Positions 6,036-55,387 of a stretch of DNA of 64,000 bases are shown here, piece by piece. The notes beneath the pieces are model-generated. The model was given only the letters and a program-made list of their open reading frames with translations. It searched no databases and had not been told where the DNA came from. This DNA is from Thermoanaerobaculia bacterium (lineage in GTDB: Bacteria > Acidobacteriota > Thermoanaerobaculia > UBA5066). Location of the stretch: contig JBGASW010000007.1 in the NCBI GenBank assembly GCA_044229475.1, positions 62,054-126,053 on the forward strand, read 5' to 3'. A program made the position numbers and the translations under genes. Positions within the stretch are counted from its first letter, which is position 1. Each line of letters opens with the position of its first letter.

Positions 6036-6356
6036 GTGAAGAAGAACCTGACCGCAGCCCTGACCGCCGTTCTCTTCGCCGCCGCGCCGGCCGCCGTGGC
6101 CGACGGCCGCTCCGAGAACTTCCAGACGTACTGCTCGGTCTGCCACGGCGACGACGGAAAGGGACAGACCGAGGAAGGAAAGAAGAAGGGCGCCCGCGAC
6201 CTCACGAACGCCAAGTGGCAGGACAAGGTCGACGACGGCCGGCTGATCAAGTCCGTCACGAAGGGGCACGACAAGATGCCCGCCTTCGAGAAGAAGCTCT
6301 CGGCCGACGAGATCAAGGCGCTCGTCGCCGAGGTGCGGACGCTCGCGAAGAAGTAG
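6036..6356 (+). CDS. Class I c-type cytochrome, secreted monoheme
   Basis: Signal peptide, single CSVCHG heme-binding motif, distal Met (KMPAF); GTG start. Confidence 0.7.
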   Translation: MKKNLTAALTAVLFAAAPAAVADGRSENFQTYCSVCHGDDGKGQTEEGKKKGARDLTNAKWQDKVDDGRLIKSVTKGHDKMPAFEKKLSADEIKALVAEVRTLAKK

Positions 6357-7285
6357 TGCGCGGCCGCCTGCCCGGGGAGCTCGCCGCGTTCGACCGCCAT
6401 CTCGCGGACGAGCGCGGCGTCTCGCGGCACACGCGGGCGGCTTACGGGAAGGACCTCGGTCGGTTTGCGGCGTTTCTCTCGACGGTCTTCTGGAACAGGC
6501 CGCTCGAGAAGATCGCGGCCGCCGACGTCGACGCGCTCGCCGTGAGGTCCTACCTCGCGCACCTGCGGGCGGACGGCCTGACGAAGGCCTCGATCGGCCG
6601 CCACCTCTCGGCGCTCCGCACGTTCTTCGCGTTCCTGAAGCGCGAGGGTCACGTCGTGGCGAATCCCGCCAAGGCGATCGCGACGCCCCGGAAGGAGCGG
6701 TCCCTGCCCCGCACGCTCTCGGTCACGGAGGCGGGCGCCGTCGTCGAGGCGAAAGGGCGGGAAGGCGCGCTCGGCGCGCGCGACCGGGCGCTCCTCGAAG
6801 TCCTCTACGCGACGGGTCTGCGCGTCTCGGAGGTCGTCGGGCTGAAACTCGAGGACGTGGACCTCTCCGCGCGGCAGGTGCGGACGGTTGGCAAGGGGAG
6901 GAAGGAGCGGATCGTCCCGTTCGGGCGCGCGGCCTGCGACGCCGTGAAGACGTGGCTCCGCGCCCGGGCCGACATGCGCCCGGCCGCGAAGGACGCGGGG
7001 TTCCTGTTCCTGAACGCACGCGCGGGGCGCCTGACGGACCGCAGCGTGCGGCGCATCCTCGACCGGGCGATGCTGGGGGCCGACGTGACCCGTCACGCCT
7101 CGCCGCACGCGCTCCGGCACTCCTTCGCGACGCACCTCCTCGCGGCGGGCGCCGACCTGCGGTCGATCCAGGAGCTCCTCGGCCACGCGTCGCTCTCGAC
7201 GACGCAGCGGTACACCCATCTCGACGCCGAACGCCTCCTCGAGGTCTACCGCAAGAGCCACCCGAAGGCGGAGGACCGGGAGTGA
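6356..7285 (+). CDS. xerC: Tyrosine site-specific recombinase XerC/XerD family
   Basis: Catalytic signature R...HxLRHSFAT...LGH...Y (RHSFATHLL, LLGHASLSTTQRYTH); GTG start sharing last base of cytochrome c stop; position upstream of hslVU as in Bacillus codV. Confidence 0.85.
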   Translation: MRGRLPGELAAFDRHLADERGVSRHTRAAYGKDLGRFAAFLSTVFWNRPLEKIAAADVDALAVRSYLAHLRADGLTKASIGRHLSALRTFFAFLKREGHVVANPAKAIATPRKERSLPRTLSVTEAGAVVEAKGREGALGARDRALLEVLYATGLRVSEVVGLKLEDVDLSARQVRTVGKGRKERIVPFGRAACDAVKTWLRARADMRPAAKDAGFLFLNARAGRLTDRSVRRILDRAMLGADVTRHASPHALRHSFATHLLAAGADLRSIQELLGHASLSTTQRYTHLDAERLLEVYRKSHPKAEDRE

Positions 7286-7311
7286 GAGAGCCCCGGCGCT
7301 AGACTCCGCGC

Positions 7312-7854
7312 GTGGCCCCTCCCGTCTTCCACCACACGACGATCCTCTGCGTCAGGCGCGGATCCTCCGTCGCGCTCGGCGGCGACGGGCAGGTCACGAT
7401 GGGGACCACCGTCATGAAGCACGGCGCCTCCAAGGTGCGGCGACTCCTCGACGGCAGGGTCCTCGCGGGCTTCGCCGGGTCCACGGCCGACGCCGTGACG
7501 CTCTTCACGCGCTTCGAGAAGAAGCTCGAGGAGTTCCACGGCCAGCTCGAGCGCGCGGCCGTGGAACTCGCGACGGACTGGCGGACGGAGAAGACGCTCC
7601 GCCAGCTCGAGGCCCTGCTCGTCGTCGCGGACGCGAAGGTCTCGCTCCTGCTCTCGGGGACGGGCGACGTCATCGCCCCCGACGAGGGCGTCCTCGCGGT
7701 GGGGTCGGGCGGACCCTATGCCGCCGCGGCGGCGAAGGCCCTGCTGAGGCACTCCACGCTCGAGGCCGCGGCGATCGTCAGGGAGTCTCTCGCGATCGCG
7801 GCCACGATCGACATCTACACGAACGACACGATCAAGGTCGAGACGCTGCCGTGA
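7312..7854 (+). CDS. hslV: ATP-dependent protease subunit HslV (with unusual 8-residue N-terminal extension before catalytic Thr)
   Basis: [20 protein letters not shown] ... [15 protein letters not shown] matches HslV throughout; only in-frame start is GTG giving MAPPVFHH before TT. Confidence 0.85.
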
Positions 7855-9197
7855 CGCCGCTGACGCTGCGCGACCTGTCGCCGCGCAAGATCGTGGCCGA
7901 ACTGGATCGCCACGTCGTCGGCCAGGCGAAGGCGAAACGATCCGTCGCGATCGCGCTGCGCGACCGCTGGCGCCGCCAGCGCCTCCCGGCCGATCTCGCG
8001 CGCGACACGACGCCGAAGAACATCCTCATGATCGGGCCCACGGGCGTCGGCAAGACGGAGATCGCGCGGCGGCTCGCCCGCCTCGTGGACGCGCCGTTCG
8101 TGAAGGTCGAGGCCTCGAAGTTCACGGAGGTCGGGTACGTCGGGCGGGACGTCGACTCGATCGCCCGCGATCTCGTGGACGCCGCGATCCGGCTCGTCAA
8201 GGAGGAGCGCCGGGCGCGCGTCGCGGACCGCGCGGCGGCGGCGGCGGAGGAGCGGCTCGTCGACCTCCTCGTGGCCGCGCTCGCGACGGACCCCTCCGGC
8301 CGGGCGGTCGCGCAGGAGGGCCGCGACAAGGTGCGCCGTGAGCTCCACGAGGGCAGGCACGAGGCGAAGGAGATCGAGATCGAGGTCGCCGACGACCGAA
8401 CGCCGCAGATCTCCGTCATGGGCCCGCAGGGCATGGAGGAGATGGGGATCGACATCCCCGGCATGATTCCCGGCCTCTTCGGTGGCCCGAAGAAGAAGAA
8501 GGTCCGCCTGCCGGTGTCCGAGGCGCGGCCGCTCCTCCTCGAGCGCGAGGCGGACGCCCTCACGGACGAGGCGACGCTCCCTTCGGAAGCGATCCGCCGC
8601 GCCGAGGAGACGGGCATCGTCTTCCTCGACGAAATCGACAAGATCGCCGGGCGCGAGGGCGCGCGGGGCGGGCCCGACGTGTCGCGCGAGGGCGTCCAGC
8701 GTGACCTCCTCCCGCTCGTCGAAGGGACGACCGTCAAGACGAAGCACGGCATGTTCAAGACGGACCACGTCCTCTTCGTGGCGGCGGGCGCGTTCCACGT
8801 CGCGAAGCCCTCGGACCTGATCCCCGAGCTGCAGGGGCGCTTCCCGATCCGCGTCTCCCTCGACGCGCTCAGCGAGGAGGACTTCCTCCGGATCCTGACC
8901 GAGCCCGAGCACGCGCTGCCGAAGCAGTCCGCCGCGCTCCTCGGCGCGGACGGGATCACGCTCGAGTTCGCGGACGACGGCCTCAGGGAGATCGCCCGCG
9001 CTGCGGCGGAGGTGAACCGCAACCTCGAGAACATCGGCGCGCGCCGCCTCCACACGATCCTCGAAACCGTCCTCGAGGAGATCTCTTTCGCGGGCCCCGA
9101 CGCGGCGGGCGCCCGCGTCGTCGTCGACAAGGCGTACGTCGACCGCGCGCTCGCGAGCCTCGTGCGCGACCGCGACCTCTCGCGCTTCGTGCTGTGA
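7851..9197 (+). CDS. hslU: ATP-dependent protease ATPase subunit HslU
   Basis: Walker [16 protein letters not shown], HslU I-domain, C-terminal GARRL; 4-nt overlap with hslV. Confidence 0.9.
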
Positions 9198-10270: not shown

Positions 10271-11124
10271 AGATCTCGCCGCTCGGCGGCCTTCCGATCC
10301 GCTTCACGAAGATGAGCGGCGCGGGAAACGACTTTCTCGTCTGGGGCGAGGCCGTGAGCGTGGGTGCGGCCGAGGTCGCCGCGATCCAGCGCCTCTGCCG
10401 GCGGGGAACCGGCGTCGGGGCCGACGGCGTCCTCTTCGTCTTCCCGGACGGGCCCGGCCGCGTCTCGGCGGACTACCGCAACGCCGACGGCTCGGTGGGC
10501 CGCTTCTGCGGCAACGGCACGCGCTGCGCCGCGCGCTTCGCGGTCCTGAAGGGGCTCGCGCCGGAGAACCTGATCGTGAGGACCGGATGGGGCGACGTTC
10601 CCTCCCGCGTCGACGGCACGCGCGTGACGCTCCGGCTGCCCGAGCCCGTCGCGGTGGGCCGCGCGGTGTCCTCGCTCGACGCGTCCGGGGCGCTGGAGCG
10701 CGAGGCGTACGCCCTCACGGTCGGCGTTCCGAACGTGGTCGCCTTCGTCGCCGGGGGGATGGACGTCGCGGCGCTCGATTTCGCGCGCATCGGTCCGGCC
10801 CTGAGATACCACCCGGAACTGCGCGAGGGCGCGAATGCGGATGTCGCGCAGGTGCTCGGGCCGTCGCGGCTCCGCGTGCGGACCTGGGAGCGCGGGGTCG
10901 AGGCCGAGACGCTCGCGTGCGGCTCGGGCAACGTCGCGACGGCGGTCACGGCCGCGGCGCTCGGGCGCGTCACGCCGCCCGTGTCCCTCGAAACGCGCTC
11001 CGGGCAGGTCCTGCGCGTGGACTTCCGATTCGAGGGCGAGGTCGCGCGAGACGTCACCCTCGCGGGCGACGCCCGCGTCGTCTACGAGGGGACGCTGGAC
11101 CCGGGGGAATGGGAGGACGCATGA
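10267..11124 (+). CDS. dapF: Diaminopimelate epimerase
   Basis: FTKMSGAGNDFLV motif and two catalytic Cys (GNGTRC, CGSGN). Confidence 0.85.
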   Translation: MKISPLGGLPIRFTKMSGAGNDFLVWGEAVSVGAAEVAAIQRLCRRGTGVGADGVLFVFPDGPGRVSADYRNADGSVGRFCGNGTRCAARFAVLKGLAPENLIVRTGWGDVPSRVDGTRVTLRLPEPVAVGRAVSSLDASGALEREAYALTVGVPNVVAFVAGGMDVAALDFARIGPALRYHPELREGANADVAQVLGPSRLRVRTWERGVEAETLACGSGNVATAVTAAALGRVTPPVSLETRSGQVLRVDFRFEGEVARDVTLAGDARVVYEGTLDPGEWEDA

Positions 11125-46269: not shown

Positions 46270-48159
46270 ATGGACGGATCGACCCCCGAAGGCTCCACCC
46301 CAAACGTCCCGACGCCGCGCGCGGGCTACCAGGGCGAGCCCGGCTCGTTCTCGGCGCGCGCGGCCGCGCGCGCAGGCCGGCCCGTCGCGCATGCGACGTT
46401 CGACCGGGTCCTCAAGGCGCTGCTCGGAGGAGAAGTCGACGTCGCCGTGCTCCCCGCGGCCACGCACGGCGCGGGCCCGGTCGTCGAGCCTCTCGAGGCG
46501 CTCGCGCGCGTCCTCGAGGGCGGCGGCGTCGCGCTCGAGGTCCGCGGCGAGATCGCGATCCCGGTCCGCCTCGTCCTCGCGGCGCCGCCGGGCGTCGCCG
46601 AGGAGGACGTCCGGGAGATCCACTCCCAGCCGCCCGTCCTCCGGCAGTGCGCGCGCCTCCTCGCGCGGCGCGACGCCGTGCCCGTCGAGACGCACGACAC
46701 GGCGTTCGCGGCCCGGCGCGTCGCCGAGCTCGGCGGGCCGCGCGCGGCCGTGTGCTCGGAGGAGGCCGCGCTCGAAGCGGGCCTCGTGGTCCTCGAAGAG
46801 GACGTGTCGGACATGAAGCCGAACGCGACGCGCTTCTGGACGGTCGCGCTCCGCTCGGAGGCCGAGCCCACGGTGCGCGCGCTCTTCTTCTCCGGCGCGC
46901 GCCTCGCCGCGGCCCTGCACGACTCGGGGGCCGAGATCCTCATGCTCGCGGGCCGGCCCGGCGCGGCCGTGGGCGGCTTCGCGACCGTCCCGGCTTCCGC
47001 GCTCGCGAAGGCGGCGGGCCTCGCGCCGAAGGCGGGCGAGACGCTCGTGTGGCTCGGGCCCGCGCCCGATCACGTCCCGCCGCCGCGCCTCCGGGAAGCG
47101 CCGCGCGCGACCGAGGTGAAAGGGCCGACCGTCGTCGCGGCCGGCGTCTTCGCCGTCGGCGGCGGGCTCCGCGCAGTGATCGCGGGCCCGTGCGCCGTCG
47201 AGTCGCCCGAGCAGGTGATGCGCCTCGCCCGGGCGGTCGCGCGCGCCGGGGCGACGGCGCTCCGGGGCGGCGTCTTCAAGCCACGCACGTCTCCGGCCGC
47301 GTTCCAGGGACACGGCCTCGAGGCGCTGCGCTGGCTGCGCGACGCGGGCGACGCCGTCGACCTGCCGATCGTCACGGAAGTCATGGCGCCGGCGCAGGTC
47401 GAACCCGTCGCCCGGCTCGCGGACGTCCTCCAGATCGGTGCGCGCAACTGCCAGAACTACGACCTCCTGAAGGAAGCCGGCGCCGCGGGGCGGCCCGTGA
47501 TGCTCAAGCGCGGCTTCGGGACGACGGTGGAGGAGTGGCTCTCGGCGGCCGAGTACATCCTCGCGGCGGGGTGCAGGGACGTCCTCCTCTGCGAGCGCGG
47601 GATCCGGACGTTCGAGCGCGCGACGCGCGGCACGCTGGACCTCGGGGGCCTCCTCGCGGCGCGTTCGCTCACGCACCTGCCGCTCCTCGCGGACCCGTCG
47701 CATGCGGCGGGGAGGAAGGAGCTCGTGCCGGGCCTCGCGCGCGCGGCGTGGGGCGCGGGTGTGGACGGCCTCATGATCGAGGTCCACGACGCGCCCGAGT
47801 CGGCTCTCTGCGACGGGCCGCAGGCGCTCCTGCCCGACGACCTCGAGATGCTCCTCGACGAGTTCGGCCTCCTTCCAGGGCGGACGGGCTCGGTCGAGCG
47901 CGTGAGGCGCGCCATCGACTCCGTGGACGCCTCGATCGCCGCGCTCGCGGCGCGCCGCCTCGAGCTCTGCCGCCGCGTCGCGGAGGTGAAGAAGGCGACC
48001 GGGCGGCCGATCCGCGACGAGGCGCGCGAGGCCACCGTGCGCGCGCGCTTCGCGGAGAGCCTCGGAAAGGACGCGACGAAGGCGGCGGGCCTCGCGGACG
48101 CGCTCATCGCGCTCGGCCTCGAGGCCGAGGGCTGGGAGGGCGACGCTACTCGCCGATGA
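46270..48159 (+). CDS. Tri-domain fusion: prephenate dehydratase (catalytic domain) - DAHP synthase (type I-beta) - chorismate mutase (AroQ)
   Basis: N-term colinear with PheA PDT domain ([11 protein letters not shown] ... TRFWTV); middle colinear with Thermotoga-type DAHPS ([11 protein letters not shown] ... KPRTSP ... QIGARNCQN ... LKRGF ... [10 protein letters not shown] ... DPSH); C-term AroQ CM helix ([26 protein letters not shown]). Confidence 0.75.
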
Positions 48160-48565
48160 TCTTGATCAGGACGCGCTTCGGGCGGCAGCCGTCCCACTCG
48201 CCGTAGAAGATCCGCTCCCAGGTGCCGAAGTCGAGGCGGCCGTTCGTGATCGCGACGACCGCCTCACGCCCCATGAGCTGCCGCTTGACGTGCGCGTCCG
48301 CGTTGTCCTCGCCCGTGTCGTTGTGCCGCCATTGCCTCACGGGATCGTGCGGGACGAGCGTCTCGAAGAAGCGCTCGTAGTCCGCGTGCAATCCGCTCTC
48401 GTCGTCGTTCACGAAGACCGACGCCGTGATGTGCATCGGGTTCACGAGGCAGAGTCCCTCCTTCACGCCGCTCTCCTTCACGGCGGCCTCGACCTCGGGC
48501 GTGATGTTCACGAACCCGATCCGGGCCGGGACGTTCAACGTGAGGACCTTGCGATGGGACTTCAC
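48146..48565 (-). CDS. YjbQ/UPF0047-family protein (secondary thiamine-phosphate synthase-like)
   Basis: 139 aa; GTG start; pattern [14 protein letters not shown] ... [10 protein letters not shown]; overlaps kinase gene stop. Confidence 0.7.
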
Positions 48566-50715
48566 GGGCTCTGTTCGCCTCTCTCCGGCGCGGACGCGTC
48601 GAGCTCGCGCAGGGCCGTCTCGGCGTTCCTCGCGGCGTCGCCTCCCGCGGGCGCGAAGCGCAGGATCTCCTCGTAGAGGCGGTGCGCGTCGCGCACGCGG
48701 CCGGAAGCACGGTAGAGCCCCGCGAGGCCCACGCGCGACGGGAGCGCCTCGGCGGAGGCGGGCGCGGAACGGAGGATCTCCTCGTAGAGCGTCTGCGCGC
48801 GGAGCGCATCCTGGCGCCTCTCGGCGGCCTGGGCGAGGCGCAGGGTCGCCGTCCGCGCGGCCTCGGCGTCGGTGCCGGAGCGAGCCTGCTCGTAGGCATG
48901 CAGGGCGTCCTCGTCCCGCCGCACGCTCTCGAGGTACTCGCCGCGCGTCAGGAGCGCCTCTCCCCGCAGGGAGGGAATCGCGGCGAGAAGATCGAGAGCC
49001 TTGAGGACGCGGCCGTCGTCGCCGGCCTTGCGGGCGAGCTCCGTCATCGTCCGGTAGAGCGCGGCGCGCGTCTCGGCGCGCGGGGTTCTCGCCGCGGCCT
49101 CCGCGTAGAGGTCGAAGGCCTTGGCCGGGCCGCTCTCCTTCTCGGCCGCCGAGCCGCGTTCGAGGATTCGCGCGAGCGTCTCGTCCGCGGCGGACGGGAC
49201 GCCCGGGCCGGGCGCGGCTCCGGGAGACGGAGCGGACGCCGGGGCCGCGCCTGCGCCGGGAAGCCGCGGCGCGCGGCGGGCCCACCACGCCCCGAAAAGA
49301 GCGACCGCGAGAGCCGCCGCGGCGAGAAGAGCGGCGGAGGCGCGCGGACCCGTCCGCGCGGGCGGCGCGGCGGGAACCGTGCGCGGGCTGGCGGGAACCG
49401 ACGCCGGCAGCGCTCGCGCGGACCCCGCGTCCGACGAGAGCAGCGAGGCGATCTGCCCCTGCGTGTACGGGTCGGGCGGCGCGAGCGCCTGGAGCTTGCG
49501 GAAGAACCGCATGAGGTTGACGAAGTCGTGCTCGAGGCGGTAGAGCTTCGCGAGCTGCAGAAGGAGCGCGAGATTGTCGGGCTCCTTCTTGAGCGCCTCC
49601 TCGAGGGAGCGGATCTTCGCGTTGTCGAGCGGCTTCTCGCGCTGCCCGGCGCGGATCGCGGCGGTCCGGAAGAGCTCCTGCGCCTTCGGGTCGTGCGGGA
49701 GGCACGCCACCGTTCGGTAGGCGGCCCAGAGGGCCTCCTCGGGCCGCGCCGAGGAATCCTTCAGGAGCGTCTCGGCCGCTGCCGCGGACTCCGCGGCGAG
49801 GCGCCGGTTGCGCGCGGCGACGAAGGCGCCCGGGTCGTCGAGAAAGGAGCGGAAGAGAACGGCGGGGCGCTCGACGTTTTCCTTCTCGAAGACCGCCCGC
49901 AGGGCCCGCGAGGCCGTCGCCGCGTCGGGGAAGCGGGCCGAGCGGTCCTTGGCGTGGAGCTTCCGGAGGAACGTGTCGACGCCGGGCGGGATCGTCGGGT
50001 CGAGCAGCGAGGGAAGCTCGGGCTCGGTCTCCGCGACGCGGCGGAGCGTCACGGCGATCGAATCGGCCGTGAACGGGTTGAACCCGCAGAGGAGCTCGTA
50101 GAGCACGGTGCCCATCGAAAAGAGGTCGGTGCGTGCGTCCAGCTCGTCGCCGCGCGCCTGCTCGGGCGACATGTGCGCCGGCGTCCCGACGACGGTCCCG
50201 GTCATCGTGAGGCGCGTGAGGTGTTCGGCGTGGCTGATGCCGAAATCGCCGATCTTCACGGAGCCGTCTTTCGTCCACATGATGTTCTGCGGCTTGATGT
50301 CGCGGTGGACGACGCCCTTCGCGTGCGCGGCCGCGAGGCCGTTCAGGGCCTCGTCGACGGCGTAGAGCGCGACCTCCCACGGGAAGCGCCCCGACTCCTG
50401 GCGCAGGGCGTAGAGCTCGCCTCCGTCGACGTACTCCATGACGATGTACGCGTTCGACGGCGTCGGGCTGCAGTCGACGAGCTCGACGATGTTCGGGTGC
50501 TTGAGCCCGATCTGGATCCGGATCTCGTGGAAGAAACGGTCGAGGAAGTCGGGGTCCGTGAGCAGGTGCGGGAGGATCTTCTTGATCGCGACCTTGCGGC
50601 CGGTCTTCGCGTCGACGGCGAGGAAGATCTCCGCCATCCCGCCGAGTGCGAGCCGGCGGACGATCGTGTAGTGGTCGATCCTCTCCGGAACCGGAGGGCC
50701 GCCGCCGTCGGGCAT
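48562..50715 (-). CDS. Serine/threonine protein kinase with TM segment and C-terminal TPR repeats
   Basis: Hanks kinase motifs ([25 protein letters not shown]), central TM helix, TPR-like C-terminus. Confidence 0.85.
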
Positions 50716-50741
50716 CGTGCGGGAATCTTACGCGGGCCCGC

Positions 50742-51653
50742 TCAGGGAGGCGGGCCGGCCTCCATCGGCAGGTCCTCGCGCGCGGACCATTCCCAGAGCG
50801 AACCGTCGTAGTTCGCGGCGACGACTCCGAGGCGGGCCTCGAGGAGAAACGCGAGGAGCGCCGAGCGAACGCCGCCCGTGCAGTAGGTGACCACGGGCCG
50901 ATCCTCGGGCAGGGGTCCGGCGGCCGCGGCGAGCGCTTCGGCAGAGGCGTACCGCCCGTCCGGCGCCCGGAGCGCGGCGAGCGGAACGAGGCGCGCACCC
51001 GGCAGACGGCCGCCGCGCGCCTGGCCCGTGAGCGTCTTTCCCGTGAACTCCTCGGGCGTGCGCGCGTCGAGGAGGACGGCCCCCGAGCCGAGCAGGTCGC
51101 GCAACGCGTCCGCACCGATTCGGCGCCCGGGCTGCGGCGACGGCTCGAAGTCGCCGGGACGCTCCACTGCGCCGTCCGGGGGGCCGCGCTCGACGCGTGC
51201 GCCCGCGAGCTTCTCCCACGCCGGGAAACCTCCGTCGAGAAGCGCGACGTCGCGCGCGCCGAGGGCGAGCAGCATCCAGCCGATCCGCCCCTCTTCGCCC
51301 CAGCCGTCCGCGCCTCCGACGACGACGACGGGCCGCGACGCGGTGAGGCCGAGGGCGCGCAGCTTCGGGGCGAGTTTCGAGTCGTCCGCGAGGAGCCCCC
51401 AGCGCGACGAACCGCGAAGCAGGTAGGCGAATCCGCCCGGCCTGACGGCGCTGAAGTCCCTCCAGTCCGCGTTCCGGCTGCCCGGGACGCGGCCGGCCTC
51501 GAACGCGCGACGGTCGCGCGCGTCGAGGACGACGGGCGCCGAGCGTCCGTCGAGCGCGGCGAGGAGCGCCGCGGCGTCGACGAGCCGGGCGCGGCCCGGG
51601 GCGGCCGCGAGAACGGGCGTCGCCAGCGCGAGAAGGAGAGCGGCGGCGCGCAC
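50742..51653 (-). CDS. Secreted tandem-rhodanese sulfurtransferase (thiosulfate/3-mercaptopyruvate sulfurtransferase-like)
   Basis: Signal peptide; two rhodanese repeats; active-site CTGGVRS. Confidence 0.75.
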
Positions 51654-51656
51654 GCG

Positions 51657-52337
51657 TCAATTCTCGCGCAGCCGGGCGCGCAAGCCGTCGAGGAGGCGGA
51701 CCGGGCCCTTCGCGCGGCCGGCGCCGCGCATCCACGCGGGCAGGCTTTCGCCGAAGACGTCGCTTTCCGTGTACACGAGCGTCGCGCCGCCCGGCGCGGG
51801 CCCCGGCGACACCGCGAAGCACCCGCTCACGGGAGCCACGCGGACGCGGCCGGAAGCCGGCGGCGCGAGGCGCATCGAGGCGTCCTCCCAGAACACGACG
51901 GCCCCGTCGCGGTCGCGGGCGACGGCGGGTGCGAGGGCGTACTCGCGCTCCTTCAGCGGCCAGGGGGCCGCGAACACCGCCGCGTAGGCCGGAGGGTTGC
52001 CGGAGAGAAGCTCGAAGGAACGCAGGCGCCTGATCCACGTAGGCCAGCGTGCGACGTCTTCGAGGATCGCGGTGACCCGGTCCGCCGGGGCGTCGAGAGG
52101 GGCGCGCGCGCGCAGGACCACGGGGCCGCCCGGCAGGCGCGCGAGGCCGACGGTCACGCCATGCTCCTCGTTCAGCGGCGAGAAGAGCGCGTCCGGGAGA
52201 CGGCAGGGGTGCGCCGGAGGGAGCTCCCGCTTCGGCGGCGTCGAGGCCCGCGGACCGTCCGCGGCCACGGAGGCGGGGAGAGAAGCCGCGAGAAGAACGG
52301 CAAGAAGAAAAGACACTGCGCCCCCGCGCGGGATCAC
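51657..52337 (-). CDS. Secreted SRPBCC (START/Bet v1/CoxG-like) superfamily protein
   Basis: GTG start overlapping radical SAM stop (GTGA); signal peptide; fold-level pattern only. Confidence 0.5.
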
Positions 52338-53638
52338 GAGGCGCGCGCCGCGGGGAGGGACGGCAGCGCGAGCGCGCCCGTCTTCGGGTCCCAGACCCCG
52401 GCGCCGCCCGCGGACGGGAGGGCGAGCGGCTTCAGGATGTAGTCGTCGCGCCGCGCGTTGTGCGCGCACATCGAGACGGGGCCGTCGTCCGTCATAACCA
52501 TGAACGAGCAGTGTGCGAGGCGCTCCTCGTCGAGCGCGTCCGCGTCCATGAAGTTCTGGATGAAGAACGTGATCTTGCCGGTCTTCCTCCGCGCGAGAAG
52601 CTCGCGCCTCACCCGCCAGAGGCGCGAGAGGACGAACGCGCCCCCGCGCAGGACCCACCAGGGCCTGCGGGCGAGCGCGAGGAGGACCTGCCGCGCCGTG
52701 CCCGGGACGTCGCGGCGGTCGAACGGCACATGCTTCATTTCCTCGAGGAAGCTCTCGTAGAGGGTCTGGTCGGCGAGGACGTCCACGGCGCGGCCGCCGA
52801 ACGTCGCGAGCATCGTGGCCTCGTGGCAGTCCGGGTGCCCGAGGAGCGCGGCATTCCACGCGAGGCCCCCTTCCCCGACCGCCGCGGTGACGCGCTCGCG
52901 GATCGCCCGCATCGTGACCTCGGGTGCGCGCGCGCGCCACTCGCCGCGGCCCGTCGCCGCCTGCACCTGGAACGAGGCCATCCCGACGACGTCGGAGTGG
53001 GCGAGGAAGAAGCGGACGAGCCCCGGGATCTCGTCGAGGTTCCCGCCGTGGACGGACGTGTTGAAGATCACGGCGATGCCGAGGCCGCGGGCGCGTTCGA
53101 TGTACTCGCGGCGGATCGCGTGGAGCGACTCCTCGGTGGGAAAGCGCCTGCGCCGCTGCGTCGTGTCCACGTGGAACGCGACGTCGTAGAGGCCGGCCGC
53201 CGCGAGCTCCTCGAGGAGGTCCCGCGTGGCCTTGATGCCGTTCGTGAACAGCGAGGGGCGGAGGTCGCGCTCGGCGACGCGCCTCACGATCGCGACGAGC
53301 TCCGCGCGGTCGCGCAGCGTCGGGTCCCCGCCCGTGACCTGCACGCTCACGCCCGCCCCGTATTGCGCGCGGATGCGGTCGATGCGCTCGAAGAGGATCT
53401 CGAGCGGCGTGTCTTTCACGGATTCGGAGGATTCCGAGAGATAGCAGAGCGTACAGTCGAGGTTGCAGCGCTGCGTGATCTCGAGGGCGACGCACCCGAC
53501 CGTCGAGCGCCGCCCGAGCACCTGGTTCGGGAGGCGGAAACGCGGGTCGAGCCTCTCCCACGCCTCGGCAAGCGCGCGCTCGCGGAGGGCGGCGTCGGGA
53601 AAAACGGGCAGACGGCTCACCGGATGGAATATTCGCAA
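52334..53638 (-). CDS. Radical SAM domain protein
   Basis: CNLDCTLCY (CxxxCxxC) cluster motif, GGDPTL SAM-binding motif. Confidence 0.75.
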   Translation of the reverse strand: MRIFHPVSRLPVFPDAALRERALAEAWERLDPRFRLPNQVLGRRSTVGCVALEITQRCNLDCTLCYLSESSESVKDTPLEILFERIDRIRAQYGAGVSVQVTGGDPTLRDRAELVAIVRRVAERDLRPSLFTNGIKATRDLLEELAAAGLYDVAFHVDTTQRRRRFPTEESLHAIRREYIERARGLGIAVIFNTSVHGGNLDEIPGLVRFFLAHSDVVGMASFQVQAATGRGEWRARAPEVTMRAIRERVTAAVGEGGLAWNAALLGHPDCHEATMLATFGGRAVDVLADQTLYESFLEEMKHVPFDRRDVPGTARQVLLALARRPWWVLRGGAFVLSRLWRVRRELLARRKTGKITFFIQNFMDADALDEERLAHCSFMVMTDDGPVSMCAHNARRDDYILKPLALPSAGGAGVWDPKTGALALPSLPAARAS

Positions 53639-53700
53639 GGGGATGGAAGATATTCCCTCGGACGGGAGTACGAGCGACGGGTAAGGGGGGATTTCTTCGA

Positions 53701-54537
53701 ATGAGAAAGAGCGGGCATCGGGGCGCCGCAGGCATGCTGCCGGCTTTCCTCCGGCTGACGTCAGCTTTCGTGATCTTGAGCGGCCTTGCGCTCGATGCTT
53801 CGCCCGCGCCAGCGCCCGATGCCCCGTTCTCCTATGCAGACTGGAATCTCGTGCTTTCGGCCTTCGTCGACGACCGTGGCACGGTCGACTACGCGGCGCT
53901 GGCCCGCGCCCCTCAGGCCCTCGACCGGTTTCTCGCGGCGGTGGAGCGGACGAGCCCGGACGTGGAGCCGGCGCTCTTTCCGACCCGGAACGACCAGCTT
54001 GCCTATTACCTCAACGCCTACAACGCGTGGGTCTTTCGCGGGGTCCTCGCCCGCGGGCCGGAGAGAGAAAGCGTCTGGAAGGGGGGGCTCGTCTCCGGCT
54101 ACTCGTTCTTCGTCGGGATGGACATCGTCCTCGGAGGCGTGAAGACGAACCTCAAGAAGCTCGAGGACAAGACGGTGCGCGCCCGCTTCGAGGACCCGCG
54201 CATCCACGCCGCGCTGAACTGCGCGAGCCGGGGGTGCCCGCGCCTGCCGCGAAAGGCCTTCGAGCCCGCCACGCTCGACGCCGAGTTGGATGCCGCGATG
54301 AGGGAGTTCGTCTCCGAGGAACGGAACGTCTCGGTCGACACGGCCGCTCGCCGCCTGACGCTCTCGAAGATCTTCGACTGGTTCGAGGGCGACTTCCTCG
54401 CCTTCGAGAGGAAGCAGGGCAACGCGAGCCCGAAACTCGCCGACTACGTGAACCGGTACCGCGCCGCGGACGCGACGGTGCCCCGGGACTTCCGGGTCCG
54501 GTTCGCGGAATACGACAAGGGGCTCAACGGGCGCTGA
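53701..54537 (+). CDS. DUF547-domain protein (secreted?)
   Basis: Pattern YLNAYNAWVF ... HAALNCASRGCP characteristic of DUF547; alternative start 53734. Confidence 0.55.
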   Translation: MRKSGHRGAAGMLPAFLRLTSAFVILSGLALDASPAPAPDAPFSYADWNLVLSAFVDDRGTVDYAALARAPQALDRFLAAVERTSPDVEPALFPTRNDQLAYYLNAYNAWVFRGVLARGPERESVWKGGLVSGYSFFVGMDIVLGGVKTNLKKLEDKTVRARFEDPRIHAALNCASRGCPRLPRKAFEPATLDAELDAAMREFVSEERNVSVDTAARRLTLSKIFDWFEGDFLAFERKQGNASPKLADYVNRYRAADATVPRDFRVRFAEYDKGLNGR

Positions 54538-54565
54538 AGGGTCGCAGCCCGTACACTCCGCGGCC

Positions 54566-55387
54566 GTGCCGCCGCGAGCGCTTTCCTCTCCTGTCCTCGC
54601 CGTCCTCGACGTCGGCTTCTTCCGCCACCCGGACCTGACCTCGCGTCGCGTCCTCGCGTGCGTCGACGCGACGGGCCGGCGCGTCGTCCCGTTTCACTAC
54701 GGGGCGCCGGGCACCGGGGCCGAGCACGGCACGCGGACGATGCTCCTCGCGGCGGGCAGCGGCCGCGCGAGCGGGCTCGTCTCGGCCGCCCCGCGTTCGA
54801 AGGTCGTCCTCGTGAAAGTCGGCGAGGGAGGCCGGGTGCCGCGCGCCGCGATCGTGCGCGCGTTTCGCTGGCTCCTCGCGCACGGAGGACGATGGGGCAT
54901 CCGCGTCGTCCTCTGTCCCTTCGGCGACGATCCCGAGATCCGGGGCGAGAAGAGCGAGGTGCCGGCGCTCGTCGCGGCTCTCGCCGCCCGCGGCCTCGTC
55001 GTCGTCGCCGCCGCGGGCTGGGATCCGGCGAACGAAGTCATCTCGCCGGCGCGCTCGCCGCACGCGATCGCGGTCGGCGGCTGGGACCTCGCGGACAACC
55101 GTCCCGCGCGCGGGCCGCGGGTCGGCCTCGTCGAGGGCGTGCTGAAGCCGGATCTCCTCGCGCCGGCGGTCCCGCTCGAGGTGCCGTGCCTGCAGGGCAG
55201 CCGGACACACGAGCGGGCCGGGGGAACGTCGTTCGCGGCCTCCCTCGTGGCGGGGGCCGCGCTCCGCATTCTCGGAAAGGAGCCGGACCTCGGGAAAGAC
55301 GGTGTCCTCGCGCGTCTCGCGGCCCTCGGGCGCCCCGTCCCCGGACACCCCCCGTTCCTGCCCCTCCGGGTGTTCCGGCGGACCTGA
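54566..55387 (+). CDS. Subtilisin-like (S8) serine peptidase-like protein, short
   Basis: HGT and GTSFAA motifs (His and Ser of catalytic triad); N-terminal part/Asp region atypical. Confidence 0.5.
   Translation: MPPRALSSPVLAVLDVGFFRHPDLTSRRVLACVDATGRRVVPFHYGAPGTGAEHGTRTMLLAAGSGRASGLVSAAPRSKVVLVKVGEGGRVPRAAIVRAFRWLLAHGGRWGIRVVLCPFGDDPEIRGEKSEVPALVAALAARGLVVVAAAGWDPANEVISPARSPHAIAVGGWDLADNRPARGPRVGLVEGVLKPDLLAPAVPLEVPCLQGSRTHERAGGTSFAASLVAGAALRILGKEPDLGKDGVLARLAALGRPVPGHPPFLPLRVFRRT

Follow-up and report, generated by a model that had tools for sequence, protein, structure and literature searches.

We report here on a run of minus-strand genes, from position 53638 down to 48146, in a 64-kb stretch of DNA from a Thermoanaerobaculia bacterium (the window; G+C about 72%), and in particular on the radical SAM protein encoded at the head of this run. 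An earlier sequence-only reading had described the run as a single operon, and its five open reading frames (ORFs) were confirmed on the minus strand with their coordinates unchanged. The first (52334-53638; 434 amino acids; Pfam Radical_SAM, 68.8 bits) encodes a radical SAM protein of an unassigned family related to GDGT-MAS/Tes, and is followed by genes for an SRPBCC/START-like putative lipid-binding protein, predicted to be secreted (51657-52337; Polyketide_cyc2, 20.4 bits, sub-threshold), a tandem rhodanese, also predicted to be secreted (50742-51653; two PF00581 stretches, 90.2 bits), a Hanks-type Ser/Thr kinase with TPR matches (48562-50715; Pkinase, 163.3 bits) and a YjbQ/UPF0047 protein (48146-48565; PF01894, 127.4 bits; TIGR00149, 114.7 bits). 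Gene content, family relationships, co-occurrence, gene fusions and fold similarity divide this interval into a conserved envelope module and a separate kinase-YjbQ pair, whose adjacency in the closest relatives is owed to shared ancestry alone. The most consistent partner of the radical SAM protein lies just outside the interval and was missed by the earlier reading. This is a DUF547 protein, predicted to be secreted (53701-54537, plus strand; PF04784, 76.8 bits against a gathering score of 27), whose gene is divergent from the radical SAM gene and 62-113 nt upstream of it.

The five ORFs are chained by 4-nt overlaps or short gaps, as had been described. The radical SAM and SRPBCC genes overlap by 4 nt (GTGA) or, should the SRPBCC gene start at GTG 52316, are separated by 18 nt; the SRPBCC/rhodanese gap is 3 nt and the rhodanese/kinase gap 26 nt, and a second GTGA overlap of 4 nt joins YjbQ to the stop codon of the kinase. 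As close packing on one strand is common in bacterial genomes, the packing of the five genes does not by itself amount to shared function. A scan of positions 47500-55000 for promoter and terminator consensus sequences returned zero promoter-like sites and three terminator-like sites, all intragenic and at chance level, a result that is uninformative at 72% G+C. The true start of the radical SAM gene is probably GTG 53620 and not TTG 53638, because the N-termini of homologues align there. Hydropathy placed a signal-like hydrophobic N-terminus on the SRPBCC protein and on the rhodanese and none on the radical SAM protein or YjbQ, making the secretion proposed for the former two plausible.

A bacterial radical SAM family closest to GDGT-MAS

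The motif CNLDCTLCY supplies Cys58, Cys62 and Cys65 of a CX3CX2C radical SAM site. Pfam matched only Radical_SAM and Fer4_12 to this protein, and neither a SPASM/twitch nor a B12-binding domain was detected with Pfam or NCBIfam; SPASM-family NCBIfam models match the core only (residues ~47-245), and the motif is reached already at residue 58 with no N-terminal cobalamin domain matched by Pfam. The protein falls in no curated family, as the sequence-only reading had supposed, with no NCBIfam model at its cut-off and the best scores far below theirs. The best of these matches is to TrsS (NF045646; 98.3 bits where 490 are required), a member of the same Tes-like clan, and aligns residues 48-395 with positions 86-431 of a 441-position profile; Tes (NF045702; 89.2 against 450) is matched over residues 48-237 only. 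TrsS is a radical SAM (seleno)protein, credited to Haft and Tolstoy (2025) by its entry in a selenoprotein list (PMC13188914). Unlike TrsS, the window protein is not a selenoprotein, because its ORF is continuous and holds no in-frame TGA.

Judged by its sequence and by a predicted model, the protein is closest to archaeal GDGT-MAS (Tes; MJ0619; structures 7TOL and 7TOM), to which it is about 21% identical and with which it shares, in a full-length match, a radical SAM core with CX3CX2C motif and partial TIM barrel followed by a C-terminal domain. A profile of the family searched against solved structures returned GDGT-MAS 7TOL first (E 5.9e-19), with PqqE behind (2.9e-9). An AlphaFold model of the protein (pLDDT 82, pTM 0.85) likewise returned 7TOL first in Foldseek (E 3.7e-16, 413 columns, TMq 0.59); other radical SAM structures matched over the core only (~220-260 columns, E near 1e-8), leaving GDGT-MAS as the sole full-length structural match. 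Exactly seven cysteines are invariant in all 68 full-length members, which come from several phyla: C49, C58, C62, C65, C271, C377 and C391. C49 is the only conserved cysteine ahead of the radical SAM motif, and C377 and C391 align with cysteines of GDGT-MAS in the FMDA...C...C segment of its C-terminal cluster domain. Since four invariant cysteines beyond the radical SAM motif suffice for one cluster, C49, C271, C377 and C391 together probably hold a single auxiliary Fe-S cluster.

The likeness does not extend to every feature of the archaeal enzyme. GDGT-MAS carries a rubredoxin domain (C9-x2-C12-x20-C33-x2-H36) and an N-terminal [4Fe-4S] cluster held by C73, C77, C80 and a histidine, and its labile ligand Met439 and Tyr459 are conserved in 1000 archaeal homologues (PMC9433317). 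The alignment with 7TOL, whose chain numbering is offset by +20 as verified on the radical SAM cysteines, begins at residue 43 of the window protein, equivalent to native residue 85. Met439 aligns with Q361, a position occupied by Gln in 42 and His in 25 of the 68 members, and Tyr459 aligns with V381, which is Val in 65 of them.

A library of 50%-identity representatives contains 109 members of this compact family at E <=1e-30, and relatives are encoded in no fewer than 578 stretches of a one-genome-per-species collection. Partners were counted at the species level in the best 79 of these loci, which come from Acidobacteriota, Planctomycetota, Bdellovibrionota, Polyangia, and Alpha- and Gammaproteobacteria (including Alteromonas and Asaia), by tblastn with the window proteins together with hidden Markov model searches; de novo ORF clustering was set aside because antisense and overlapping-frame ORFs of the high-G+C radical SAM gene contaminated the clusters, and so was one distance table in which DUF547 is undercounted on that account. 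The best 120 matches in a homologue search were all at least 65% identical and mainly from Thermoanaerobaculia. The nearest locus, L001, is from a Thermoanaerobaculia (Acidobacteriota) metagenome-assembled genome and its radical SAM protein is 97% identical, followed by that of L002 at 90%. A second copy of the gene was sought in the 64-kb window and none was found. Many Acidobacteriota carry two paralogues of this gene, ~70% and ~55% identical to the window copy (for example genome pairs L006/L071 and L007/L028; also L009 and L044), and the two at times stand in tandem with a TIGR04283 glycosyltransferase gene between them, L044 being one such case.

This breadth sets the family apart from archaeal Tes, as it is bacterial and includes aerobes, and from Tes as described in its partners, which here are secreted DUF547, START and thiol proteins. 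Mss, a radical SAM protein with a Tes-like catalytic architecture, has been proposed as a lipid-tail enzyme (PMC13274423) and is reported from anaerobes only, such as Thermotoga and Thermoanaerobacter, and not from Acidobacteria (PMC13159169); by these descriptions our family differs from Mss in being abundant in Acidobacteriota and present also in aerobes. Bacterial homologues of tetraether synthase with unknown reactions were flagged in 2022 (PMC9433317), and the present analysis defines one family of them, with its invariant residues and the catalytic features of GDGT-MAS that it lacks. The module built around it is new to the literature we searched and sits within the Tes-like radical SAM clan.

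A fold match over the full length and the highest sequence similarity, both to GDGT-MAS, raise the possibility that the enzyme is the acidobacterial synthase of membrane-spanning lipids, coupling two fatty-acid tails to iso-diabolic acid, the precursor of branched glycerol dialkyl glycerol tetraethers, much as Tes couples archaeal lipids, with the START protein as lipid chaperone. Such an enzyme is wanted, as Acidobacteria produce iso-diabolic acid without Mss and Tes homologues occur in only three of 14 producers (PMC13159169). Lipid-binding START and YceI neighbours would suit this role, as would the strong conservation of the protein across Thermoanaerobaculia and Holophagales (65-97% identity). 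Set against it, members of the family that are 48-56% identical and likewise partnered by DUF547 occur in Alteromonas, Halieaceae, Methylophagaceae, Acetobacteraceae, Bdellovibrionota and Planctomycetota, none of which is known to produce membrane-spanning lipids. Furthermore, the replacement of Met439 by Gln or His and of Tyr459 by Val, the absence of the N-terminal rubredoxin and cluster domains, and a recurrent context of thiol proteins, ArsM-like methyltransferases and TIGR04283 glycosyltransferases that has no part in tail coupling all argue otherwise, and we consider this role decidedly unlikely. The family bears on the question of which enzymes Acidobacteria employ for their unusual membrane lipids.

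DUF547 and the other envelope partners

DUF547 adjoins the radical SAM gene in 47 of the 79 loci, spanning at least four phyla (Acidobacteriota, Planctomycetota, Bdellovibrionota, and Alpha- and Gammaproteobacteria). In 42 loci it lies directly 3' of the radical SAM gene in the same orientation, and a 4-nt start/stop overlap is frequent there; it is adjacent but divergent in four loci and convergent in one, and in four further loci it is non-adjacent at a distance of up to 8 kb. In one protein (P0243, 656 amino acids) the radical SAM enzyme and DUF547 are joined through a hydrophobic, lipobox-like segment, a layout that fits an enzyme inside and a DUF547 domain outside the membrane. Conservation within DUF547 is high, with 44 positions kept in at least 90% of 51 radical SAM-linked members, including H169, and an invariant cysteine pair in the motif L-N-C174-x4-C179-P-R-L-P. 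Alteromonas proteins (L074 9346-11154; L069 3324-5096) extend DUF547 by a C-terminal DUF1223 domain, which is thioredoxin-like and bears the motif CSSC. We know of no function and no solved fold for DUF547. A literature search returned nothing on bacterial DUF547, the papers found being concerned with plant transcriptomics and class IV glutaredoxin fusions, and the association described here gives the domain its first specific bacterial context.

Seven gammaproteobacterial loci (L055, L056, L057, L069, L072, L074 and L079) also encode, divergently beside the radical SAM gene, a secreted protein of ~354 amino acids that matches neither Pfam nor NCBIfam models (L074 6935-7999, minus strand, is one instance); L057 is without DUF547.

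So close a pairing may be read as that of an enzyme and its protein substrate, in which the radical SAM protein would mature DUF547 before export, for example at Cys174/Cys179, after the manner of anaerobic sulfatase-maturating enzymes or QhpD. Adjacency in 47 of the 79 loci, frequent translational coupling, the fusion in P0243 and the invariant C-x4-C-P-R-L-P motif are all consistent with such a maturase, as is the combination of a cytoplasmic radical SAM protein with a secreted partner. The SPASM/twitch domain typical of peptide- and protein-modifying radical SAM enzymes was, on the other hand, not detected, the best relative is a lipid enzyme, 28 of the 79 loci have no adjacent DUF547, and the hydrophobic segment of P0243 is more in keeping with a trans-membrane complex than with an enzyme and its substrate. 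Maturation of DUF547 is thus, in our view, unlikely.

A START/SRPBCC gene lies beside the radical SAM gene, or in its cassette, in ~25 acidobacterial loci. The window SRPBCC protein is 26-40% identical (tblastn) to the START proteins of these cassettes, and a homologous protein from L028 (10446-11042) passes the cut-offs of both START (24.1 against 22) and Polyketide_cyc2 (27.5 against 27.4). In ~17 acidobacterial loci, representing one paralogue group, the cassette takes the form radical SAM-DUF547-MauE-START, the MauE protein (PF07291) carrying a CGCFG motif, and on its 5' side lie genes for a divergent extracytoplasmic function (ECF) sigma factor, a zinc-finger/HEAT anti-sigma factor and a DUF4097 protein.

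The rhodanese has a catalytic-type six-residue loop, C258-TGGVR, in its second domain (CTGGVRS at residue 258) and scores 58 against a cut-off of 250 with the 3-mercaptopyruvate sulfurtransferase model, and so is not that equivalog. It is part of the radical SAM run in approximately seven loci (the window, L001, L002, L080, L082, L088 and L098). In L001, L002, L082, L088 and L098 it completes the trio radical SAM-SRPBCC-rhodanese, and in L080 it follows the radical SAM gene directly. Locus L088 has DUF547, the radical SAM gene and SRPBCC-rhodanese on one strand with 4-nt overlaps and neither kinase nor YjbQ after them, and there the SRPBCC and rhodanese form a single ORF of 515 amino acids with one signal peptide (6308-7855). 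Homologues of the rhodanese at 51-62% identity on other contigs have no radical SAM gene alongside; the scan of metagenomes from the rhodanese side covered 18 confirmed loci, many of them short. SRPBCC-rhodanese is therefore a cassette that comes and goes beside the radical SAM gene, and the rhodanese is a lineage-restricted accessory.

The regular partners of the enzyme can thus be named as DUF547, START, MauE or rhodanese, and the TIGR04283 glycosyltransferase described below, and three natural fusions back these partnerships: glycosyltransferase-radical SAM, radical SAM-DUF547 and SRPBCC-rhodanese.

The kinase and YjbQ across relatives

The kinase scores 163.3 bits against 31.7 for Pkinase and 278 against 450 for the PASTA-kinase model, and is not a PASTA kinase; hydropathy gives it one transmembrane segment (residues 456-480) between a cytoplasmic and an extracytoplasmic TPR region. 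YjbQ passes TIGR00149 at 114.7 bits against a cut-off of 67.75. As neighbours of the radical SAM gene both are confined to a syntenic clade, in which radical SAM identity is at least 80% and which is made up of the window, L001, L002, L098 and the P0011 contig, and tblastn across the 79 loci found rhodanese, kinase and YjbQ together with the radical SAM gene only in L001 and L002.

Within and just beyond this clade the chain breaks at several points. In L098 (89% identity) radical SAM-SRPBCC-rhodanese is followed by an opposite-strand gene and then by a gene of 709 amino acids, truncated at the contig end, at the position of the kinase. The intervening gene (10472-10741, minus strand) encodes a small YgaP-like transmembrane protein, of a family associated with membrane rhodaneses. 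The P0011 contig (80%) has the order SLT-photolyase-Fur-DUF547/radical SAM-kinase-YjbQ-PDT/DAHPS, the last a fusion of prephenate dehydratase and DAHP synthase, and is syntenic with the window; here SRPBCC and rhodanese are absent, the kinase follows the radical SAM gene directly and the 4-nt kinase-YjbQ overlap is kept. In L100 (77%) the genes after the radical SAM gene encode START, a Metallophos phosphoesterase and YceI, and in L102 (79%) and L101 (75%) no partner adjoins it. The kinase is absent from L088 and L100-L102, and searches made from the radical SAM and rhodanese sides found no orthologue of it in L003-L079, where only weak kinase-like matches (29-37%) occur, in L021 and L053. Among loci found from the radical SAM side, none outside the clade of at least 80% identity has YjbQ beside the gene.

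The sequence-only reading had seen in the first three genes a sulfur-transfer or cofactor-modification pathway, coupled to the kinase and YjbQ. Spelled out as a five-gene operon, the rhodanese would supply sulfur, SRPBCC would act as ligand carrier, the kinase would regulate and YjbQ would act in the pathway. In favour of this reading are the 4-nt overlaps and gaps of at most 26 nt, the recurrence of radical SAM, SRPBCC and rhodanese together, with SRPBCC and rhodanese fused in L088, and the position of the kinase directly after the radical SAM gene in the P0011 contig. The kinase and YjbQ, however, are confined to the clade of at least 80% identity, in which conservation extends over the entire stretch from SLT to PDT/DAHPS; in L098 an opposite-strand gene splits rhodanese from kinase, the P0011 contig keeps kinase and YjbQ without SRPBCC and rhodanese, and L088, L100, L101, L102 and approximately 75 other loci have neither kinase nor YjbQ. 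Furthermore, direct hand-over of sulfur from the rhodanese to the radical SAM enzyme is unlikely because the rhodanese is secreted and the enzyme cytoplasmic. As a whole, the five-gene pathway is highly improbable. Co-occurrence holds for the first three genes, which recur together, and fails for the other two; the proposed coupling to the kinase and YjbQ finds no counterpart in relatives at 75-79% identity and beyond, where both are lacking; and a sulfur-transfer or cofactor-modification logic may yet apply to the first three genes, although the wider context of the family suggests a lipid-type radical SAM enzyme linked to arsenosugar-type genes and not a five-gene pathway under control of a kinase. 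As the chain breaks across this ladder of relatives, we regard kinase-YjbQ as a narrow-clade syntenic neighbour: very probably the two are neighbours and not pathway members, and DUF547 is the true partner. The locus also serves as a caution for annotation, in that tight same-strand packing may join a conserved module to unrelated neighbours.

Arsenic-type neighbourhoods and a proposed chemistry

Arsenic-type neighbours were counted in approximately 14-18 of the 79 loci. A glycosyltransferase of TIGR04283, named by NCBI 'arsenosugar biosynthesis glycosyltransferase', adjoins the radical SAM gene in ten loci from four phyla (L007, L009, L014, L021, L039, L044, L049, L073, L076 and L078); it was above cut-off in three of four neighbours scanned, and in P0244 (712 amino acids) it is fused to the radical SAM enzyme (230 bits against 182). 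A polyprenyl-phosphate-type GT2 domain is fused to a Tes-like radical SAM domain in a more distant relative, P0378. An ArsM-like methyltransferase follows DUF547 in L050, L054 and L063, and in L076 an ArsM-like methyltransferase and an ArsC-type phosphatase precede the radical SAM gene. Three acidobacterial genomes have, in three arrangements, a fusion of a second radical SAM domain with an ArsM-like domain adjoining the Tes-like gene (834 amino acids; L013 5277-7781, L007 3-1412 and L021 5190-7691). The fused radical SAM domain of L013 is not ArsS, its best match being the Rv1681 family (133 bits) with ArsS at 56 against 300. L013 also has a DUF2064 gene that is TIGR04282-like at a sub-threshold score. 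A CbiR-like phosphodiesterase is fused or adjacent in L078 and L073 (237 bits against 105), and in four related gammaproteobacterial loci (L059, L064, L068 and L070) arsR, gapdh, arsJ and arsC lie within 8 kb of the radical SAM gene.

These surroundings recall ArsS (TIGR04167) and ArsL, the radical SAM enzymes of arsenosugar and arsinothricin biosynthesis, which likewise stand beside ArsM-type methyltransferases; the ArsS accessory family TIGR04283 is the same one that adjoins or is fused to members of our family. The enzyme itself is distinct, as ArsS (cut-off 300) is outside the 25 best of its 45 NCBIfam matches and hence has an E above 5.7e-7, and the setting differs in that there is no ars gene in the window. 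ArsL has its CX3CX2C motif at residues 194-201 of 428 (PMC8552651). With its motif at residues 58-65, the window protein is not ArsL.

A MerA-like FAD disulfide reductase (597 bits against 620, NF004991) is encoded near the radical SAM gene in L006, L009, L014, L020, L021 and L044, accompanied by a DedA/TVP38-type membrane protein in five of the six and not found with it in L044; the 64-kb window was searched for both genes and holds neither. The MerA-like and DedA genes, the ECF sigma factor, zinc-finger anti-sigma factor and DUF4097 protein that flank the cassette in many acidobacterial loci, and the redox-type cysteines of many partners would fit a general unit of periplasmic thiol or oxidative-stress defence, in which DUF547, rhodanese, MauE and DUF1223 repair or buffer envelope thiols under control of the ECF sigma factor, no lipid or metalloid product is dedicated to the unit, and the radical SAM enzyme is unrelated and merely co-regulated. 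The radical SAM-DUF547 and glycosyltransferase-radical SAM fusions argue instead for direct cooperation, start/stop overlaps are frequent, and the START, glycosyltransferase, methyltransferase and phosphoesterase partners indicate biosynthesis, so a stress unit of this kind seems very unlikely.

We propose, tentatively, a model that would accommodate these associations, in which a lipid-directed radical enzyme works with periplasmic thiol and lipid-handling partners and is tied to organo-metalloid chemistry; we hold it to be possible and somewhat short of probable. The cytoplasmic radical SAM enzyme would act on the inner membrane face upon a lipid-like substrate, which may be glycosylated or polyprenyl-linked, by taking a hydrogen from one of its unactivated carbons, and would then make a carbon-heteroatom (As, S or Se) or C-C bond by way of its putative auxiliary cluster, in the fashion of GDGT-MAS. 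In the periplasm, the dithiol of DUF547 and the rhodanese may bind or transfer the heteroatom, with MauE or the DUF1223 thioredoxin-like domain taking the place of the rhodanese in other lineages, and the hydrophobic product would be carried by START. Going by genomic association, this chemistry may overlap with organo-metalloid biosynthesis of the arsenosugar type. Which substrate is used, which bond is made, how the parts are placed about the membrane and what each partner does are our inference.

Several observations weigh against this model. Lipid chemistry is not assured, because the family has kept neither the catalytic Met439 and Tyr459 of GDGT-MAS nor its two N-terminal metal domains (one of rubredoxin type, the other binding a [4Fe-4S] cluster). 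With the enzyme in the cytoplasm and its partners in the periplasm, a transport step would also be required. DUF547 was not found in 28 of the 79 loci within the flanks available, our literature search returned no paper pairing 'DUF547' with 'radical SAM', and the window SRPBCC protein scores 20.4 bits where the Pfam cut-off of Polyketide_cyc2 is 27.4. On the side of arsenic, the ArsM-like proteins fall under the arsenite methyltransferase cut-off (188 and 229 against 263, the latter being the score of the methyltransferase part of the 834-residue fusion), and the name of TIGR04283 presumably rests on association with ArsS, an annotation by context. Moreover, MauE, TIGR04283, ArsM-like and DUF2064 genes were sought in the 64-kb window and none was found, which makes the arsenic link one of family association only.

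In a bolder reading, the radical SAM enzyme would join a lipid tail or lipid-linked sugar to arsenic or to another chalcogen or metalloid. A Tes-like radical at an unactivated terminal carbon would be captured by a trivalent methylarsenical, as ArsS does with the 5'-deoxyadenosyl radical. Handling of the thiol-bound metalloid would fall to DUF547, rhodanese and MauE, and START would be the periplasmic carrier of the lipid product. Were this so, the products would be arsenic-containing fatty acids, hydrocarbons or arsenosugar lipids; we consider this reading quite improbable. The analysis connects neighbourhoods of organo-arsenic genes with a radical enzyme of lipid type and yields hypotheses that can be tested in culturable hosts, among them Alteromonas portus (L074), Alteromonas sp. 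S167 (L055) and Asaia bogorensis (L067). It is of relevance to the radical SAM, arsenic and acidobacterial lipid fields, to a degree limited by the lack of arsenic-type genes at the window locus.

A plus-strand ORF of 629 amino acids (46270-48159) with prephenate dehydratase, DAHP synthase and chorismate mutase domains is convergent to YjbQ and overlaps it by 14 nt (48146-48159); the P0011 contig carries this fusion too. At the other end of the run, a subtilase gene (54566-55387, plus strand; Peptidase_S8, 62 bits) lies between DUF547 and Fur. It is missing from L098 and the P0011 contig, where Fur comes directly after DUF547, and is probably present in L001 and L002, because a DUF547-Fur gap of ~950 nt there matches that of the window. 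Finally, the divergent intergenic region of the radical SAM and DUF547 genes contains an AT-rich inverted repeat, GGAATAT-N17-ATATTCC (53626-53656), with perfect arms of 7 bp. The pattern has a single match in the 64-kb window and occurred in 0 of 100 shuffles, and its arms are kept in L001 and L002 with a different spacer, making it a candidate operator, or binding site for a regulator.

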